NCBI GenBank assembly: GCA_964536035.1
Contig: CAZHWL010000001.1
Coordinates: 1 to 30,456 of the forward strand
DNA: 30,456 nt
Origin: an uncultured Candidatus Bathyarchaeia archaeon
GTDB taxonomy: Archaea; Thermoproteota; Bathyarchaeia; Bathyarchaeales; Bathycorpusculaceae
Direction of reading: 5' to 3'
The notes below the pieces were generated by a model. The model made no database searches and was not told the origin of the DNA. It saw only the letters and a program-made list of their open reading frames with translations. Every line of letters begins with the position of its first letter. Position 1 is the stretch's first letter. Made by a program: the position numbers and the translations under genes. Below, one piece after another: positions 8,777 through 25,805 of this stretch.

Positions 8777-10666
8777 TTAAACAAGCAGCAAAAACAACAT
8801 CAAGAGAACACCACTGCCAACACAAATTGGCCCTATGATTTTTTTTGCCCTCTGCAGTGCCGTGTCGGTGAGAAGAGACAAAGTCTCCAGTCGCTCTTCA
8901 CCAATCACCTTGATGTTTGGTATGACGATGCTACGACAGCCAGCTTTCACATATTCAAGTCTTGATAAAGCAGTCCGTGTCGCTTCTTTGATGTATTCGA
9001 TCAGTTTCTCATGCGGAATCGCTTCTCCTACTGGGTGATATCCGCGTCTTCCAAGAATCACGGCGTTGACTGAATGCGTGTCGGTAGTGTAAACTTCGCC
9101 CGCGTCAATACCAAAGCCATGAAGAGCGGACAGAATTTTCTCACGAAGTCCAGAAATCATGTTATTACCATCAATAACCACGTAAGCAGTCTTCTGGTTG
9201 CTGACTTTAACCACAGTCACGGTTATCCCTCCGTCTCCCATGCCATCCTGTAATCGAAATTCCTTCGGACACAACGTAGACGCTCCGACCTCGAATGTTG
9301 ACTGCTTCATAGATGAAGCTTTCTCCAAACACTTAGCAGCCGCATCTTTCAACGAGTCTAAGACTTCGTTCACGTTGTTGACGCCATTGATGCTGTTATG
9401 CGCATTGACGACGATACAGCATTTCAAACCATGTTTTTCGGCTTCTTGCTGGACAAATACTCCCAACTCTTGCGGAAAGTCTTCCGTTGTGCTTGGAGAC
9501 AGAGTGATTGAAAGAAAAGCGGAATTGCCAAAGATTTGACAACAGGCAATAGCCACACCATTGCTTACTGTAGTGAAGGGCGACGCTTTTGCAGCGGTAG
9601 CCTCAAAGGTCACTCCTTCAACGACATGTCTAATTATGCTTTGATTCTGAAGCTGCGAAGCCAAATCAAGTTCGTGACCAAACAACCCATGCGGAGCGCA
9701 TGCAATGCATCCAAACTCCTTTTCAACCGCGTTCTTAAGCAATGCAGGTAGAATACTGCTTCCAATGTTCTTGAAAGGACCAGGATGGACAGAAGGAATT
9801 ATCATAACCGCTTTAGGCTTATCAGAGGCAAATTTCATCAGCGAAACCTCGACATCTTGCTCTTCCCCAAGCTCTTCCAAAAACTGCTCAAAGGGGTCGT
9901 TCAAGTTCTCTATCCAATTCAGCAAAAATGCCTTGAAAAGCTTCAAAGAGGGAATACCGAGAGAATTCTTTCCAACTTGGTTGACAAGATGAAGGAAAGC
10001 ATAGCTTGCAACGATCCCTACAACAGAAGCGAAAAGCAGAAAAAATATCAGTTGGGCACTTATCGAGAAACCAAGCGCAACCCAGAGCGTTAATAATGGA
10101 GCTAAGAGGCTGTAAGGTTGAACAAATGCGGCAAAAAGCAGTTTTCCGTTGTCGTCATCTGAACTAGCGTTGAAAACTATCAACCTGAAGATTAATACTG
10201 CTGAAAACCCCAAAAGACAAAGCCTCATCCACCATGCAGACTCAACCGCGTAGAGCGTTATTACATCGCCAACAAGGACGAATGCAAACCATAGGCCCAA
10301 ACCGAAAAGAGACACCACGGCAGTTCGTCTCAAATCGTAGATGGGGTTATGTCTCCGTATCAATTTGCTGATGGCAAGGTCAAGTAGGAGATTTGCAAGA
10401 AGCATAGAACACCCAAGCAGGACTCCATCGATCAATCCCTTCTGAGAGGGAGAGAGAACTGTCGTGGATAACAAGCTGCCTCCAACGCAAATCAGAGCCT
10501 GAAACAGCACAACTCTTGTATATGATGGAAGCTTGAAGAGTGAAGCATAATGCTTCACTGCGTTGTCCATCGACTCATTGAGAGAGACTTTTGTCAAACT
10601 TCCATCCTCTGAAACGGACTTTCTAGAAAGTAGCGAGGAGAATATTAAATTATTGTGAAAACACAT
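8777..10666 (-). CDS. DUF2070 membrane protein (COG3356, predicted membrane lipid hydrolase)
   Basis: Multi-TM N-terminal half; soluble domain with HPGPF, HG..GH, NAHNS, DGNNM and TTDTH; C-terminal TM helix. Start is uncertain; ATG 10570 (MDNAVKHY) is plausible. Confidence 0.88.
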   Translation of the reverse strand: MCFHNNLIFSSLLSRKSVSEDGSLTKVSLNESMDNAVKHYASLFKLPSYTRVVLFQALICVGGSLLSTTVLSPSQKGLIDGVLLGCSMLLANLLLDLAISKLIRRHNPIYDLRRTAVVSLFGLGLWFAFVLVGDVITLYAVESAWWMRLCLLGFSAVLIFRLIVFNASSDDDNGKLLFAAFVQPYSLLAPLLTLWVALGFSISAQLIFFLLFASVVGIVASYAFLHLVNQVGKNSLGIPSLKLFKAFLLNWIENLNDPFEQFLEELGEEQDVEVSLMKFASDKPKAVMIIPSVHPGPFKNIGSSILPALLKNAVEKEFGCIACAPHGLFGHELDLASQLQNQSIIRHVVEGVTFEATAAKASPFTTVSNGVAIACCQIFGNSAFLSITLSPSTTEDFPQELGVFVQQEAEKHGLKCCIVVNAHNSINGVNNVNEVLDSLKDAAAKCLEKASSMKQSTFEVGASTLCPKEFRLQDGMGDGGITVTVVKVSNQKTAYVVIDGNNMISGLREKILSALHGFGIDAGEVYTTDTHSVNAVILGRRGYHPVGEAIPHEKLIEYIKEATRTALSRLEYVKAGCRSIVIPNIKVIGEERLETLSLLTDTALQRAKKIIGPICVGSGVLLMLFLLLV

Positions 10667-18156: not shown

Positions 18157-18993
18157 TTGAAATTGACGTCTTCTGTCTTGGATCTAGACTGGCTAGACGT
18201 AGAAACCAAGATAACACGGTTCATCAGTGACTATGTGGATAAAATCAAAGCAAAGGGCATAATTGTTGGATTGTCTGGCGGAATTGACAGTTGCGTTGTA
18301 GGAGCACTTTCAGCGAAAGCTATTGGCGGAAACAGAGTTCTTGGACTGATGCTTCCAGAGAAAGAAACAAGAAATGAGGAAGACATTCGTCACGCCAAGC
18401 TTGTGATAAAGAAGTTCAAACTCAGATCACAGCTCTGTGACATCACGTCAACTCTCGAAGCGATTTACACCTCAATTCCCATATTTGACACAGAAGACAG
18501 AGTGTGCAAAGGCAACATAAAAGCCCGCACAAGAATGCTATACAACTACTACTGTGCGAATAAACTTAACATGCTTGTTTGCGGAAGCTCAGATAAGTCT
18601 GAGACTATGATGGGATACTTCACGAAGTGGGGTGATGTCGCTGCAGACATCTCCCCAATAATGGATCTCTATAAAACCCAAGTCAAAAAACTTGCCAACC
18701 ACATTGGCATTCCGAAAACAATCATTGCCAAACCATCAACTCCGGCATTGTGGCCAGGCCAGACTGCAGAAGGAGAACTGGGCATCGGATATGAAACTCT
18801 TGATCTCATACTCTATGGTTTGGAACACTTTATGACCGTGGAGGAGATCTCAGAACAATTACTCATGAAGCCCAGCATTATAAAGAAGGCAAAACAAAGA
18901 TGGCTGGGAGCCGAACACAAAAGGCGCATGCTATTAACAACTAAACTTGAATACAGAACAGTGGGAACAGATTTTAGACTCAGAAGAGGATGA
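18157..18993 (+). CDS. nadE: NAD+ synthetase, single synthetase domain
   Basis: GLSGGIDS P-loop, GNIKARTRM, SDKSE, GYFTKWGD, DLYKTQV and PSTPALWPGQT motifs. Confidence 0.96.
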   Translation: MKLTSSVLDLDWLDVETKITRFISDYVDKIKAKGIIVGLSGGIDSCVVGALSAKAIGGNRVLGLMLPEKETRNEEDIRHAKLVIKKFKLRSQLCDITSTLEAIYTSIPIFDTEDRVCKGNIKARTRMLYNYYCANKLNMLVCGSSDKSETMMGYFTKWGDVAADISPIMDLYKTQVKKLANHIGIPKTIIAKPSTPALWPGQTAEGELGIGYETLDLILYGLEHFMTVEEISEQLLMKPSIIKKAKQRWLGAEHKRRMLLTTKLEYRTVGTDFRLRRG

Positions 18994-21015: not shown

Positions 21016-21160
21016 TTTATTCTCCTCATTAAGCAATGCAGACATTTCAATAAATCGTTTGTGCCTGTACCGCGTGCTTTCTCGCATAAAGGCGACAGTC
21101 TTAAAAGCGGAGCCTGTATACAGAACCGTATCCATTCAGCATAATCCGGGGAGTCAAAGT

Positions 21161-21640
21161 TTGAAGCTAAAAGAAAGCGTTCAGGCATGGTTGCAGGGCT
21201 CAGTTAGTGACCCCATTGTGGCAATACTTGCTAAAAATAGCCATTTAACGCGAACGCAGCTTGAAACACTGCTCATTGACATTTTATCGGAGAATTTCTC
21301 AGGCAAACAGCTAAAATATGATGAAAAAGCCAAATTAAGGCTAACAAAGGCACAAATAAGCCGCGGTGCGTTCAATAGGACATTAAAACAGGCTAAGGAT
21401 AACGTAATAAAATCAATCTATACCGTCTTACTTCTGGGCTATTTGGGAGTATTCGAGGACACAACTCTTGACCCGTACCTTGAGGTGGCAAACAAATTGC
21501 ATACATACGTGGAGGCATACAAAGACATACCAAATAAGAATGCAGAACTGAGTGACCATCTAAAAGTCATAGAAATGATCAGAGAAGAGCTTGAAACGAG
21601 CCTAAAACAGCTTTCCAGTCCATCAGAAGGCATGACGTGA
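21161..21640 (+). CDS. Conserved hypothetical protein with probable HTH (159 aa)
   Basis: LTRTQLETL...KAKLR...ISRGAFNRTLKQA resembles a sigma-region-4/Tfx-type HTH. The 20915 start overlaps the aminotransferase, so TTG 21161 was chosen. Confidence 0.72.
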   Translation: MKLKESVQAWLQGSVSDPIVAILAKNSHLTRTQLETLLIDILSENFSGKQLKYDEKAKLRLTKAQISRGAFNRTLKQAKDNVIKSIYTVLLLGYLGVFEDTTLDPYLEVANKLHTYVEAYKDIPNKNAELSDHLKVIEMIREELETSLKQLSSPSEGMT

Positions 21641-21932
21641 TATCACAAATCACGCAAAAAAAGCGCAAAGTGTGACATGAGAAGAGCACCGTCTGGAAAG
21701 GGGTATAAATCGCTTTTTTATCAAAACAAAGCCAAAAATGAGAAGATTCAAGAAAGAGTCATCATGTGTTGAGTTGGCTTTACTTTCACGGAAACTGTGA
21801 CGTGTGACGTCATAGAACCATGGCCTAATGGAAGAGACCATAAGATTTAAATGAAATATCATGAGATTGTGATGTGTGATGCAACAGTGGCAGTGTCACA
21901 TATAATCACGTCGAAATCACAGGAGTTCGTGA
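21636..21932. repeat. Array of 13 YGTGA/TCACR motifs in both orientations (operator- or centromere-like)
   Basis: Counted by hand at 21636, 21643, 21650, 21671, 21786, 21796, 21803, 21868, 21875, 21896, 21906, 21917 and 21928. Includes tandem heptamers TGTGACG x2 and TGTGATG x2 and palindromes GTGATATCAC and TGACGTCA. Confidence 0.8.
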
Positions 21933-21933
21933 G

Positions 21934-22644
21934 ATGGAGTATCTTCTAGCACTTGTAGGAATTTTGCTTGGAATTACGGCTATTATGGCGGGTGTGTGCT
22001 ACAGATTGCTACGTAAAGCGAAAAGAGATTATGAGAAAGCAAAAGACGCTGTCAAAGACATTGTTCTAAGCTTCAATAGGCAGATTAGAAATGAAGCCGA
22101 GAAGATTGCACTTGTCGCATATAAAATGGAAGCCCTCTCGTCGAAGAGCGATAGTGCTCTAAAAAAAGCAGATGAGGCGGTTAAGGTAGCTCAGACAATG
22201 GAAGCTAAAGTCACTTCAGTGTTGGAAGCAAGAGACAAAATGTTGACGAGACTTGACGAGGTTGACAAAAAAGTGTGTGATGTCACCACGTCACAATCTT
22301 CAATCTCTGCAAAGATCACAAGTTTGGAAAACCAAGCAAGGCAGTTTGCACTTGCTCCTGAACCAAATGTTGAGGCGGTAATCCCCATCAAAAGAGATAA
22401 AGCTCTCGCGCCTCTCACGGAGACAGAGTTATCTGTCCTAGAAATGTTAACCTCTGAAGGACCGAAGACTGCTCCTGAGACCAAAGACAGAGTAAAACTA
22501 AGCAGAGAACATACCGCTCGCCTCATGAAGAAACTCTATGAGGGAGGTTACCTGGAAAGAGAAACAGGAAAAATTCCTTTCAAATATAGCGTCAAGAAGG
22601 AAATGGAGAAACTGCTAAAGAAGGTTGAGGATCAAGCATCATAG
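21934..22644 (+). CDS. Membrane-anchored coiled-coil protein with C-terminal winged helix
   Basis: N-terminal TM (YLLALVGILLGITAIMAGVCY) followed by RLLRKAKR; about 110 aa of heptad-rich helix; LTETELSVLEML...LSREHTARLMKKLYEGGYLER wHTH; GGAG RBS. Confidence 0.85.
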   Translation: MEYLLALVGILLGITAIMAGVCYRLLRKAKRDYEKAKDAVKDIVLSFNRQIRNEAEKIALVAYKMEALSSKSDSALKKADEAVKVAQTMEAKVTSVLEARDKMLTRLDEVDKKVCDVTTSQSSISAKITSLENQARQFALAPEPNVEAVIPIKRDKALAPLTETELSVLEMLTSEGPKTAPETKDRVKLSREHTARLMKKLYEGGYLERETGKIPFKYSVKKEMEKLLKKVEDQAS

Positions 22645-22711
22645 GTTACACTAACGACGGTTTTTTCTGTGTTTTAAGCTCTCTCGATTGCCTTTCCTTA
22701 CTAGAGAGCCG

Positions 22712-23257
22712 CTACGTTTCAGGGACGTCATAATCTGGTCTTCTGCTTCTCTCCAAGTATTCTGGATAATGTGTTACTTTTATGGATACTGCGAACCTTA
22801 TTTTTGGTTCAGATATCAATAATGCTTCGCCCGAGAGAAGAGTTAAAGCTGTCTGGCTTTCCATTTCAATCCTAAAATCTTGCAGGTAACTCCTGTGTAC
22901 ATGTGCATTTCCAACAGCTGTACAGATTCGCTCGCCATAACCCCAATTAACATTGCGTCCTTCTACGATTGCATGTAGAATGCATGAGGTATACTCACCA
23001 GTTGTTTGCCCGCTTAAGCGTCCTTGTCGCGCAGTCAACAGCCAAGAAACTTCCAGAGAAGTAGCCTGTTTTTTTAAAGGTTTTATTAGGGTAACATCTG
23101 CCTTCGTGTTTACTGGTGGCTCTTCTTTGGTCTCAATGGGACCTGCAATTCGGCCATTATTAACATAGGTCTTGAGCTTTCGCTCCAGATCAAAGAAGTC
23201 TCTTTTAACAGTCCGGTCTATCGATCTCCCCTCAGCAGATAGTGGGGTAGTCTCCAA
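22712..23257 (-). CDS. Hypothetical protein (181 aa), no recognisable family
   Basis: An open frame filling the gap between two genes, co-oriented with 23300..23755 (42 bp gap); TTG start. Confidence 0.55.
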   Translation of the reverse strand: METTPLSAEGRSIDRTVKRDFFDLERKLKTYVNNGRIAGPIETKEEPPVNTKADVTLIKPLKKQATSLEVSWLLTARQGRLSGQTTGEYTSCILHAIVEGRNVNWGYGERICTAVGNAHVHRSYLQDFRIEMESQTALTLLSGEALLISEPKIRFAVSIKVTHYPEYLERSRRPDYDVPET

Positions 23258-23299: not shown

Positions 23300-23755
23300 C
23301 TAGTTTTCTGGTAAATCTTTCTGTACGGGCATCGGTTGTTTGAATTGTATTTGCGGGGCCTTTTGAGCCAAATGATACTTCAGACTGTTCGCTGCGCCAG
23401 CCTTAACGAGCATGCCTTTCAAGGCCATCCGTGAGAGATATGTAGCCGCCGTGCTTAATCCTATGGGTTCCCTGAGCTCCTGCTCATACGCTGATTGTAA
23501 GTCCTTTGAAGAAAACCAAATAAGTTGGAAGTTTCTCTGAACAACCATACGAACCTTTTCACATTTAGACAGCTTCGGATCTACAATTGTTTGTTTTTGC
23601 TCAGTGTTGATGTTTTCGTTTGGCACTCCACCTAGAAGTTCTACTAGATCTAAGAGCCGGACAGCCTTGTCTCTAGTTATCTGGCCTTCGAAGGCTATTG
23701 TGTATCGATTGCCTTCGCTGTCGAATAGCTCTACACGCATTTTTCTTGCAGGCAT
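23300..23755 (-). CDS. Hypothetical two-domain protein with C-terminal winged helix, divergent from oriC
   Basis: Small N-terminal beta/alpha domain (MRVELFDSEGNRYTIAFEG...LLDLVELL), a polar linker, then FSSKDLQSAYEQ...IGLSTAATYLSRM..KGMLVK.G wHTH. Confidence 0.8.
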   Translation of the reverse strand: MPARKMRVELFDSEGNRYTIAFEGQITRDKAVRLLDLVELLGGVPNENINTEQKQTIVDPKLSKCEKVRMVVQRNFQLIWFSSKDLQSAYEQELREPIGLSTAATYLSRMALKGMLVKAGAANSLKYHLAQKAPQIQFKQPMPVQKDLPEN

Positions 23756-23954
23756 CTATACTGCCCATCTCTTCAAAGTGTTCACAACTTTACAATTCAC
23801 ATGTTATAGGTGTTGCGGTGAACGCACCATATCTAAAAAAGGCCGTAAAGAAACAGAAAAGGCAAAACGGGCAGATTTTGCAAAGACTTTGTCTAAACTA
23901 ACTTCACTACGGTTTTAGAATTTAAAAAAAAGTAAAACATGTGGCGCCCCGGTG

Positions 23955-24407
23955 TCTCCAGAAGAAATGAAGGGGTGGTTAGTTCACACAGAAGAAGCAT
24001 GAAAAACTCAAGAATTCTCAAAAGGAATTCAAAAACATTCACTAAAAAATCAACTTCACAAAGGCTTCACAAAAAAGTGAACTAAAGTGAATAGCCGCAG
24101 ATCAGCAATCACTAACCGTTTTAAAGCTAAACTACTTTGGTAGCTATTTGGCATTTCAGTTTTATGCTTATCACTAAAAAATTGGTGACAGGTTATGGGC
24201 CACCCCTTCATTTCTATTGGAAAGTGCGGAGTGCACATCACTTCAAAAAAACGCAGTGCAAACTTTTGTTAGTTCATCTAAATTCTTTAACAATCACAAT
24301 TATATCTTGTTTAATGTACTGACCTACTAGAGTATATTTATCAAGAAAGTAAATTAGCATTAATTCTCAACATCAAGAAAGGTTTTCCACTGGAATTATT
24401 GGGGTGG
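23955..24407. other. Probable chromosomal replication origin (oriC): ORB elements and AT-rich unwinding region
   Basis: ORB1 (+) TCCAGAAGAAATGAAGGGGTGG at 23957-23978; ORB2 (-) TCCAATAGAAATGAAGGGGTGG at 24200-24221, 20/22 identical to ORB1 and inverted; ORB3 (+) TCCACTGGAATTATTGGGGTGG at 24386-24407; AT-rich spacer; adjacent to cdc6. Confidence 0.88.
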
Positions 24408-24554: not shown

Positions 24555-25805
24555 TTGCAAGAAACAAATATCTTAGATGGCGTGTTTGAACGGTTTGTTA
24601 GTGAAGCGAGAGTGTTCAGAGATAGAGAAGTTCTTCGGCATGACTATTTGCCTAACCGATTACCTCATAGGGAGGAGCAAATTAGACAGCTTGGTGAGAC
24701 AGTGGCTCCGGTTTTGAAAGGAGCGCGCAGTTCGAACATTTTTATTTATGGCAAGACTGGCACGGGCAAAACAGCTGTGACAAAGTATGTTTTGAATCAT
24801 CTAGAAATTAAGGCGAAGGAACTCGGCGCGCCAATTAGGTTTTGTTATGTTAACTGCAGAATGGTGGGTTCTGAGTATAGGATCTTTGCAAGCCTATGCC
24901 AGACAATAGGAATCTCTGTCCCATTCACAGGCTTGTCCGTGGGTGAAGTTTTTGAGAGATTCCGCGCTGGCCTGGAGACTTCGCGGATTATTCTGATAAT
25001 AGTCTTGGATGAAGCGGATGCGTTGATAAAGGATCGCGGTGATGGCTTGCTTTATGAGTTGACGAGAATAAATGAGTCTTTACGGAGTAGTAAGGTATCG
25101 CTTATTGGAATCTCTAATGATCTCAGGCTCAAGGAATTTTTGGATCCACGGGTCTTGAGTTCACTTAGTGAGGAAGAAATGGTTTTCAGGCCTTATGATG
25201 CTGCTGAACTGAAACGTATTCTTTCTGAACGTGTAGCTACAGCTTTCTGCAAGGATGCCTTATCTGACTCAGCTCTAAGCTTGTGCTCAGCTTTGGCGGC
25301 GGCAGAACATGGTGACGCGCGGCGTGCGCTGGACTTGTTGCGGGTCGCTGGAGAGGTTGCAGAGCGGGCCAATGCTACTGTCGTGGTTGAGGATCATGTG
25401 CGGGAAGCTGAGAAGCGCATTGAGCACAACCGCGTCTTCGAAGGGCTGAAGAATCTGACTTTGCATTCGAAACTTGTGGTCTTAAGTGTTTATCACCTTA
25501 ACCGTGCAGAGGTTCATCGAGCAATTACTGGAGAGATCTTTGAAGTGTACAGTGAGGTCTGCGGGTTCATAGGGATGACACCATTAACACAACGCAGACT
25601 AGGCTCATTAGTTAACGAGCTTGATTCTATGGGCCTTCTGAACGCAAAAGTCGTGAGCATGGGTAGATATGGTCGAACCAAAAAAATCAGACTGGAAGTC
25701 TCCAGAGGAATAGTTAAAGATGTTTTTGGCACCGACGATAGGCTTGGGCGCTTAATCGAGTACGAACCAAAATGTCTAAAGAAAGGTGCAGATCGCGGCA
25801 AATAA
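24555..25805 (+). CDS. cdc6: Orc1/Cdc6 replication initiator
   Basis: LPHREEQI, Walker A GKTGTGKT, YVNC, Walker B VLDEAD, GDARRALDLL, and a C-terminal wH (GRYGRTK); GGAGG RBS. Confidence 0.97.
   Translation: MQETNILDGVFERFVSEARVFRDREVLRHDYLPNRLPHREEQIRQLGETVAPVLKGARSSNIFIYGKTGTGKTAVTKYVLNHLEIKAKELGAPIRFCYVNCRMVGSEYRIFASLCQTIGISVPFTGLSVGEVFERFRAGLETSRIILIIVLDEADALIKDRGDGLLYELTRINESLRSSKVSLIGISNDLRLKEFLDPRVLSSLSEEEMVFRPYDAAELKRILSERVATAFCKDALSDSALSLCSALAAAEHGDARRALDLLRVAGEVAERANATVVVEDHVREAEKRIEHNRVFEGLKNLTLHSKLVVLSVYHLNRAEVHRAITGEIFEVYSEVCGFIGMTPLTQRRLGSLVNELDSMGLLNAKVVSMGRYGRTKKIRLEVSRGIVKDVFGTDDRLGRLIEYEPKCLKKGADRGK

Follow-up and report, generated by a model that had tools for sequence, protein, structure and literature searches.

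Organisation of the locus

The DNA analysed here is a stretch of 30,456 nucleotides (the window) from an uncultured Candidatus Bathyarchaeia archaeon (assembly GCA_964536035.1, contig CAZHWL010000001.1, positions 1 to 30,456, forward strand). Our subject is the gene on its + strand at 21934..22644, encoding a protein (P0001) with a predicted membrane anchor, a long coiled coil and a winged-helix head, together with the array of TGTGAY units which lies before it. A preliminary description of this DNA, made from the letters alone, had proposed an open reading frame (ORF) at this position with a transmembrane segment, a stalk and a winged helix, and both the frame, of 236 amino acids (aa), and this anatomy were confirmed. 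The gene begins with ATG, preceded by GGAG at 21922-25 (8 nt upstream), and a T6 run is found 17 nt past its stop codon. It is present as a single copy in the source genome, a Bathyarchaeia metagenome-assembled genome (MAG) of 1.16 Mb which is 86% complete. The window contains, one after another, PolD DP2, PcrB, NAD synthase, nitrilase, aminotransferase, a short gene which we call up160, the array, the anchor gene, a 181-aa remnant, a second short gene (dn151), three origin recognition box (ORB) elements, the initiator gene orc1/cdc6 and PolD DP1.

Anatomy of the protein

The membrane anchor was assigned to aa 3-23 (21940..22002, + strand), where the mean Kyte-Doolittle hydropathy is 2.2 and the modelled helix has a per-residue confidence (pLDDT) >93. 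The charges around this segment are asymmetric in an alignment of 36 family members, which was used for all conservation statements below unless another sample is named. The flank before the segment (mean 3 aa) holds a single K/R in total across the 36 members, so that the positive n-region expected of a cleaved Sec signal peptide is absent, and it contains D or E in 33 of them; the 15 residues after the segment carry a mean of 5.1 K/R with a minimum of 3. Because the acidic N-flank and the basic cluster behind the segment hold across the alignment, aa 3-23 is predicted to be a signal anchor, oriented N-out/C-in, rather than a cleavable signal peptide, which places most of the protein in the cytoplasm. 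Outside the membrane there would be essentially nothing, only 2 residues. The hydropathy and charge counts thus agree with the transmembrane segment and the basic patch behind it noted in the preliminary description, as does the predicted topology with its claim that there is no extracellular sensor domain. A cleaved signal, which the same description had named as the alternative, does not fit N-flanks which lack a basic n-region and a segment which obeys the positive-inside rule across the 36 members.

The anchor is followed by a cytoplasmic stalk, aa 24-139 (22003..22350, + strand), which is a canonical, uninterrupted coiled coil of ~17 nm (116 residues x 0.148 nm), slightly longer than the ~110 residues and ~15 nm first suggested. 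The alignment-averaged hydropathy of this region has its strongest period at exactly 3.5 residues, with a power of 120.9 compared to a mean of 6 and a maximum of 41.5 after shuffling (0 of 2000 shuffles reached the observed value). A single heptad register runs through aa 31-139 with no G or P, and the AlphaFold2 model built from the 36-member alignment contains one unbroken helix from aa 2 to 139 with pLDDT >93. The profile of the stalk matches the coiled coils of tropomyosin, MCP and SMC proteins. Its sequence varies freely while its length is kept, with the exception of ~30 conserved juxtamembrane residues which include the motif Y-Y..I-R.A..E-Y-E.A-K..V.D-I-V.S-F-N-R-Q-L. A homodimer prediction with two copies of the protein gave a score of 0.15 against a mark of 0.42 and counts neither for nor against a dimer.

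Between the stalk and the head lies a flexible linker, aa 140-160 (22351..22413, + strand), as had been expected from the sequence; the model is disordered at aa 141-154 (pLDDT <50), and the alignment shows a conserved V-I-P-I-K-R-D/E-K-A-L stretch within the linker.

The head is a winged helix of MarR/TrmB type at aa 161-220 followed by a C-terminal helix at aa 222-235 (together 22414..22638, + strand), an assignment already made in the preliminary description and on which Pfam, the model and Foldseek now agree. Pfam TrmB (PF01978) matched aa 161-220 with 25.6 bits (E 1.2e-5), exactly at its gathering score, and Pfam MarR (PF01047) reached 22.7 bits, below its gathering score of 24.6. In the model the domain is composed of helices at aa 163-175, 180-187 and 191-203 and a two-strand wing (aa 207-210 and 217-220) ahead of the last helix. 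The full folds of neither family are present: in MarR proteins the winged helix lies between N- and C-terminal dimerisation helices, whereas here a disordered linker precedes it and one helix follows, and in contrast to full-length TrmB proteins the chain ends 16 aa past the wing, with no further domain in Pfam or the model. The nearest NCBIfam model is Lrs14 (NF040939), with 25.2 bits against a cut-off of 90, so that the protein is not a member. When the head model was searched with Foldseek the matches were only DNA-binding proteins of MarR/ArsR type, ST1889 among them, and several were DNA complexes, including those of ZitR, AbfR and the archaeal centromere binder AspA (PDB 5k5q).

Thirteen residues are invariant in the alignment (T164, E165, L169, R191, E192, H193, R196, K199, L201, G205, R209, P215 and Y218). 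The recognition helix itself, aa 191-203 (nt 22504-22542, + strand) from the model and its conservation, carries the pattern S/T-R-E-H-T-A-R..K-K-L which is invariant across Bathyarchaeia. Over 36 members with identities of 24-65% the recognition helix and wing stay invariant and the stalk changes freely, a contrast which implies one conserved target.

The TGTGAY array on the promoter of the gene

A cluster of TGTGAY/RTCACA hexamers, conserved in relatives, extends over 21636..21921 and ends 13 nt before the start codon; the gene therefore lies directly after the repeat array, as the preliminary description had it. The array consists of a palindrome (CGTGATATCACA) at the stop codon of the upstream gene, two tandem doublets of the form TGTGAYNTGTGAY at 21796-21808 and 21868-21880, and inverted units at 21895, 21905 and 21916. 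There are 8 TGTGAY copies in 280 bp (21642-21921) compared to a genome mean of 0.91 per kb, which makes this the densest such cluster in the assembled 1.16 Mb genome; the next best has 5 copies. That second cluster, on contig C2, lies on one strand within an Rrp4 exosome gene and was rejected as a coding coincidence. All 3 YGTGAY-N1-YGTGAY doublets of the genome sit in the array. Two further Bathyarchaeia genomes show a similar concentration at the orthologous locus, which holds 4 of 5 such doublets in one and 3 of 3 in the other. Tandem Repeats Finder detected just the 7-nt doublet, and the array is best described as a cluster of dispersed hexamers and not as a tandem repeat. Scans of the whole window with Rfam (gathering thresholds) and for tRNA returned no RNA gene, and the array was accordingly rejected as a known RNA gene.

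Between the two doublets a putative transcription factor B recognition element (BRE) and TATA element, ccataagatTTTAAAT, was read from the sequence at 21838..21852 (+ strand), and the downstream doublet (21868-21880) would overlap the transcription start predicted from it. This CCATAA-N3-TTAAAT element is conserved in relatives, and the layout of the family is kept site for site: stop-codon palindrome, doublet, CCATAA-N3-TTAAAT, second doublet and a RTCACR-N4/5-ATCACA pair before the ribosome-binding site, the last of which reads ATCACG-N5-ATCACA at the present gene. At least 5 TGTGAY copies were found within 330 bp upstream in 34 of 43 family loci, and the loci with a count of zero have the cluster slightly further upstream. 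The array scheme of Nitrosopumilus maritimus is that of Bathyarchaeia. In Methanomethylicia, TGTGA(G/Y) units and CTCACA accompany the TATA-like box of a coiled-coil gene which encodes no anchor and has no up160 beside it, and the recognition helix there is altered to A-R-E-H-V-A-R-T-L. TGTGAY units also remain at the gene in Aigarchaeota, where dn151 lies 13-490 kb away.

Since the Methanomethylicia lack up160 and keep the array, the array travels with the anchor/coiled-coil gene and not with up160, and the most economical reading of these patterns is that the protein would bind the array on its own promoter. Such binding would agree with what is known of TrmBL1, whose TGM motif TATCAC-N5-GTGATA is built from GTGA half-sites (PMC4706686).

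Other occurrences of the motif were noted. Three more TGTGAY units (TGTGATGTCACCACGTCACA...) are found in the coiled-coil coding region at 22276..22320, and a small YGTGAY cluster, ATCACAGCTCTGTGACATCACG, lies inside the NAD synthase gene at 18426-18447, 3.2 kb upstream of the array. Contig C8 carries an isolated composite site, TGTGACGTCACAGTCACA, at 10109-10126 (locus L077, 1510-1527), where it stands between divergent genes for a PadR-like regulator and a double-PAS sensor, ~20 bp before the start of the latter; its form is that of the distal array element in relatives. We found no other array in the assembled genome, and besides TGTGACGTCACAGTCACA the gene's own locus is the sole evident target.

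Family and distribution

At E<=1e-3 we obtained 4329 matching proteins, nearly all of 220-245 aa and either unnamed or labelled 'MarR family', which is the label NCBI gives to relatives; most carry a precomputed PF01978 or PF01047. No curated NCBIfam model fits the anchor/coiled-coil protein, up160 or dn151. Of 201 Bathyarchaeia genomes sampled, 144 contain the gene, as do 94 of the 120 of high quality; as a rule there is one full-length copy, at 26-64% identity. When Thermoproteota were searched with a profile, clear relatives were identified outside the class. The phylum-wide count of 272/301 genomes is not an orthologue count, as it includes many weak generic matches to winged helix-turn-helix domains (E 1e-4 to 1e-7). 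The form in Nitrosopumilaceae (N. zosterae NZNM25_17740; N. maritimus ABX13693.1/WP_012216179.1, 200 aa) has the anchor, a shorter coiled coil, a long linker and the head, and the Aigarchaeota form is ~130-145 aa long and also has an anchor. Relatives in Methanomethylicia (Methanosuratincola), Nezhaarchaeales, Culexarchaeum and a MAG labelled 'Thermoprotei' possess coiled coil, linker and head without a membrane segment. Judged from these sequences, the constant core of the family is the coiled coil, the linker and a winged helix with R-E-H-x-A/S-R, and the anchor is lineage-specific.

In three loci of one genus (g4; L014, L015 and L030) no ATG, GTG or TTG precedes the membrane segment and the codon aligned with the start is ACG (ATC ACG GTC GAT...), which suggests an ACG start. 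In L014 and L030 this codon forms part of an ATCACG operator unit, and the corresponding letters in L015 are AGCACG.

Metatranscriptomic contigs from two libraries of a single study overlap the 21934-22644 gene, one of 4,010 nt corresponding to 21100-22711 at ~98% identity and shorter pieces to 22198-22348 and 22540-22676. These contigs give no strand, ends or level, and the long one crosses genes on opposite strands, so that DNA carry-over is possible; they provide a weak hint that a close relative of the gene is expressed. No paper on this protein family came up in a literature search which covered Bathyarchaeota origins, archaeal membrane-anchored winged-helix proteins and, for N. maritimus, the accession and guessed locus tags.

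Origin neighbourhood and neighbouring genes

The oriC core occupies 23944..24407 and comprises three ORB elements at 23944-23978 (+), 24200-24234 (-) and 24384-24407 (+), recognised from the inverted repeats I1 and I3 and the ORB-like pattern TCCA..GAAAT..GGGGTGG. The initiator gene orc1/cdc6 follows at 24555..25805 (+ strand; Pfam Cdc6_C, Cdc6_lid and AAA). ORB1 (23944) is 1300 bp from the stop codon of the anchor gene, a distance correctly estimated at about 1.3 kb in the preliminary description, and 2.3 kb from the array. One strand of the 799-bp oriC spacer carries 5 copies of the hexamer TTCACA (23781-24072), a density of 6.3 per kb compared to 0.77 genome-wide; TCACA is the core common to this hexamer and the array units.

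The gene order is the same in relatives at ~65% identity. Among 20 distant Bathyarchaeia loci, up160 was present in 19, DP1 in 18 and orc1 within 4 kb in 14, and Nitrosopumilaceae, N. maritimus among them, retain the arrangement beside oriC/orc1/PolD. In most anchor-carrying lineages, as in this genome, 0.5-4 kb separate the locus from oriC/orc1, and every sampled lineage in which it adjoins orc1 carries the anchor, although these lineages are few and not independent. No motor NTPase gene (ParA, SegA or ParM) was found among the scanned window proteins.

The upstream neighbour up160 (21161..21640, + strand) encodes a protein of ~159 aa with a motif resembling a helix-turn-helix, S-R-G-A-F-N-R-T-L-x-Q-A. 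Its start is probably the TTG at 21161, as a longer ORF from 20915 overlaps the aminotransferase gene. It matched no Pfam or NCBIfam family, and a profile search of the PDB gave nothing meaningful. We did not find up160 in five anchor-less genomes, 95-99% complete, from Methanomethylicia, Culexarchaeia and Nezhaarchaeales. The downstream neighbour dn151 (23300..23755, - strand), which faces oriC, encodes a protein of ~140-150 aa in which a small beta-beta-alpha domain (aa 4-41) is joined through a disordered linker to a C-terminal winged helix similar to the DNA-binding domains of Fur and RosR; it has no Pfam or NCBIfam family and a PDB profile search gave weak hits only. It is present in all lineages tested and adjoins the coiled-coil gene in 12 of 20 loci of the class and 16 of 20 outside it, anchor-less lineages included, whereas in Aigarchaeota it is located elsewhere in the genome.

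The 181-aa ORF between the gene and dn151 (22712-23257, - strand) is what a deletion-fusion has left of two genes. The N-terminal 137 aa of a 337-aa protein correspond to its aa 13-148, and the final ~60 aa of a HerA-like DUF87 ATPase to its aa 122-181. Both sources are full genes at the same spot in three other loci (L001, L004 and L041); the pair is variable and missing in L003.

A proposed membrane-fixed DNA binder near the origin

We favour, at somewhat less than an even chance, the reading that the protein is a membrane-fixed, self-repressing DNA binder which tethers the origin-proximal locus. The N-terminal signal anchor would insert the protein in the cytoplasmic membrane, the unbroken coiled coil of ~116 residues would probably drive dimerisation, and the two heads would be presented on flexible linkers of ~20 residues. 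TGTGAY units lie around and over the putative TATA box, the predicted start site and the 5' leader of the gene, and by binding them the heads would repress it. As the protein would be confined to the membrane, occupied sites would also hold the chromosomal locus there, and origin-proximal DNA might thereby be tethered as with bacterial RocS, RicO and RacA. The array would be operator and docking site at once, as parC is for ParR. Four elements of this scheme, namely dimerisation, binding of the array by the protein rather than by a neighbour, autorepression and a role in origin positioning or segregation, are ones which we infer from the anatomy, the conservation and the gene order.

The preliminary description had likewise preferred a DNA tether to a signalling regulator. 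That preference gains circumstantial support from the anatomy, the invariant recognition helix, the densest array of the assembled genome on the gene's own promoter, the kept gene order and the bacterial analogues; moreover, an own locus which, TGTGACGTCACAGTCACA apart, is the sole evident target together with a stalk of conserved length fits a structural link between DNA and membrane better than a signalling regulator. One of its arguments, that a protein with no sensor domain is not a regulator, is weak, as single-pass regulators without a sensor are common: a DNA-binding domain is the only domain in ~57% of the transmembrane transcription regulators catalogued (PMC10269533).

Several further observations weigh against a tether. 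Relatives without an anchor retain both coiled coil and head, and those of Methanomethylicia the promoter array as well; the core job of the family therefore needs no membrane. The layout of the array is that of an ordinary archaeal autorepressor, the isolated TGTGACGTCACAGTCACA site is a possible second target which hints at a small regulon, and dn151, which likewise has a winged helix and occurs in every lineage tested, may bind the array instead. Since the genome is 86% complete, the ranking of the array as the densest cluster holds for the assembled part alone. Proximity to the origin is also not universal. In one Bathyarchaeia family (f18; genomes G174, G123, G162 and G135, loci L036-L039, L049 and L050) the only orc1 homologue found is 290-343 kb off or on another contig and no ORB was found within 10 kb of the gene. 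This homologue is only ~33% identical and the block up160-array-gene-DP1 is kept. The initiator gene of this family has moved or been replaced, and the origin perhaps too. In Aigarchaeota and the anchor-less lineages no orc1 was found within 10 kb. Finally, the unrelated PcrB and NAD synthase genes share the conserved neighbourhood, and the synteny may therefore be inherited and not functional.

An alternative is that the protein is an ordinary sensor-less transmembrane regulator, an autorepressed protein of MarR/TrmB type which would respond to membrane state, a partner or regulated proteolysis, control a small regulon and have inherited its position near oriC. We regard this as possible but on the unlikely side. 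A DNA-binding domain with one membrane segment is the commonest catalogued architecture (PMC10269533), and ArnR and ArnR1 are archaeal examples (PMC6396743). The sites overlap the TATA box and the predicted start site, as in autorepression, the composite site stands before a PAS sensor gene, the anchor-less relatives keep the array and family f18 has lost origin adjacency. A regulator of this kind is harder to reconcile with the lack of any array elsewhere in the genome and with an extracellular part of 2 residues; a rigid ~17 nm stalk of conserved length would be superfluous for regulation, and a recognition helix which is invariant throughout the class would be unusual for a one-component regulator.

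The array may instead be read by dn151 or up160, with the anchored protein binding bulk nucleoid DNA, the TTCACA repeats of the origin or the neighbour itself as part of a three-protein module. Both neighbours are as conserved and syntenic as the gene, dn151 has a winged helix of DNA-binding type in all lineages tested, and the origin spacer offers 5 TTCACA copies on one strand. We nevertheless consider this reading improbable: the array is always on the promoter of the anchored protein's gene, the TGTGAY units of Aigarchaeota remain with that gene and not with the distant dn151, and the change of the motif (Y to G at position 6) occurs in the same lineage as the change of the recognition helix. 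For up160 it can be largely rejected, as it was not found in the five anchor-less genomes and the three Methanomethylicia among these keep the array.

It is less likely still that the winged helix serves for contacts between proteins, like those of ESCRT-III/CdvB tails or the Cdc6 winged-helix domains, and would recruit a partner such as Orc1 or dn151 to the membrane without binding DNA. Winged helices can bind proteins, the conserved juxtamembrane and linker motifs suggest partner contacts and the gene is constantly found beside dn151. The best structural matches of the head, however, are all sequence-specific DNA binders of MarR/ArsR type, which goes against the interaction module that the preliminary description had kept in view; R191, H193, R196, K199 and R209 are invariant on the recognition helix and wing, and a matching conserved DNA motif lies in cis. 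A cleaved signal peptide, with the coiled-coil protein secreted or exposed on the surface, would account for a single N-terminal hydrophobic segment and has next to no likelihood given the acidic flanks in 33 of 36 members, the basic cluster placed after the segment in lieu of a basic n-region, the lack of a small-x-small cleavage motif on reading the sequence and a DNA-binding head which would be senseless outside the cell.

Taken further, the proposed tether might represent an ancient, motor-less archaeal counterpart of the origin-membrane attachment of the replicon model, shared by Bathyarchaeia and ammonia-oxidising Thaumarchaeota, in which a single centromere-like array is used and the protein together with dn151 would fix newly replicated origins so that growth or Cdv-driven division partitions the chromosomes; the anchor-less relatives in other TACK lineages would then be a soluble, ancestral form which bridges DNA. 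We put this wider picture forward as speculative and rather doubtful.

To our knowledge the mechanism of chromosome positioning and segregation is not established for most archaea, and we know of no described protein which links an archaeal origin region to the membrane; our literature search likewise found none joining the two. The family is single-copy, occurs in most Bathyarchaeia and also in cultured Nitrosopumilus (ABX13693.1), which makes it testable at the bench, and a candidate DNA target which is compact, defined and conserved lends itself to simple in vitro and heterologous tests. Even if the protein were only an autoregulated membrane-bound regulator, it would still hold that a three-gene module of DNA-binding type has persisted next to oriC/PolD through much of the TACK archaea and that a putative binding-site array is conserved from Bathyarchaeia to Thaumarchaeota. 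Module and array together amount to a protein family and a cis-element which are new, widespread and unnamed.

Comparison with known systems

Lrs14 proteins are small, soluble archaeal winged helix-turn-helix proteins of ~100-120 aa which autoregulate. Theirs is the nearest NCBIfam model for the head, the score being far under the cut-off for membership, and ST1889 figures in the Foldseek list. The best Pfam match is to the TrmB family, and the DNA units share a GTGA/TCAC core with the sites of TrmBL1. Unlike TrmB proteins, the present protein has no C-terminal sugar-binding domain and possesses a membrane anchor and a long coiled coil; direct repeats and 7-bp doublets prevail among its candidate units in place of a single palindrome, and these units mark one locus, not a metabolic regulon.

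In regulators of ToxR type an N-terminal head lies close to the membrane and a sensor is located in the periplasm. A census of transmembrane transcription regulators defines them by a DNA-binding domain and at least one transmembrane region in one protein (PMC10269533), and by that definition the anchored protein belongs among them. It resembles ToxR, CadC, TcpP, ArnR and ArnR1 in that both parts are combined in one polypeptide. It differs from the ToxR type in its C-terminal head on a 17 nm stalk, in having 2 residues outside and in the fact that no array is evident beyond its own promoter.

ParR, which acts on parC of plasmid R1, and SegB are centromere binders whose binding sites double as the operator of their own operon. 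As with ParR/parC, AspA (pNOB8) and SegB, short iterated repeats flank the promoter of the binder's own gene, and we propose that here too autoregulation would be combined with a structural role. Unlike in those systems, the window contains no ParM, ParA or SegA motor gene and the archaeal binder would be fixed to the membrane; the head also differs from the ribbon-helix-helix of ParR. A HerA-like ATPase stands beside the gene in some relatives, is variable and is reduced to the fusion remnant in the window.

In design the protein resembles three anchors of Firmicutes which fix the origin to the membrane or pole, RocS of S. pneumoniae, RicO of S. aureus and RacA of B. subtilis. In these a DNA-binding domain with sequence specificity is combined with a central coiled coil which interacts with itself, a disordered stretch and a means of attachment to the membrane, and their motifs are concentrated near oriC (10.64898/2026.03.06.710092). 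The archaeal protein, from another domain of life and without sequence homology, has the mirrored order with the anchor N-terminal and the head C-terminal, and its anchor is a predicted integral helix and not an amphipathic helix or a contact to DivIVA. Its head is of MarR/TrmB type whereas that of RocS is of MerR type, and its candidate sites form one compact array on its own promoter in place of sites dispersed over hundreds of kb. It shares with the three bacterial proteins the combination of a domain of DNA-binding type, a coiled coil, a disordered stretch and a predicted membrane attachment. Its candidate target, an array unmatched elsewhere in the genome, sits 2 kb from oriC; in family f18 the adjacency to orc1 is lost.

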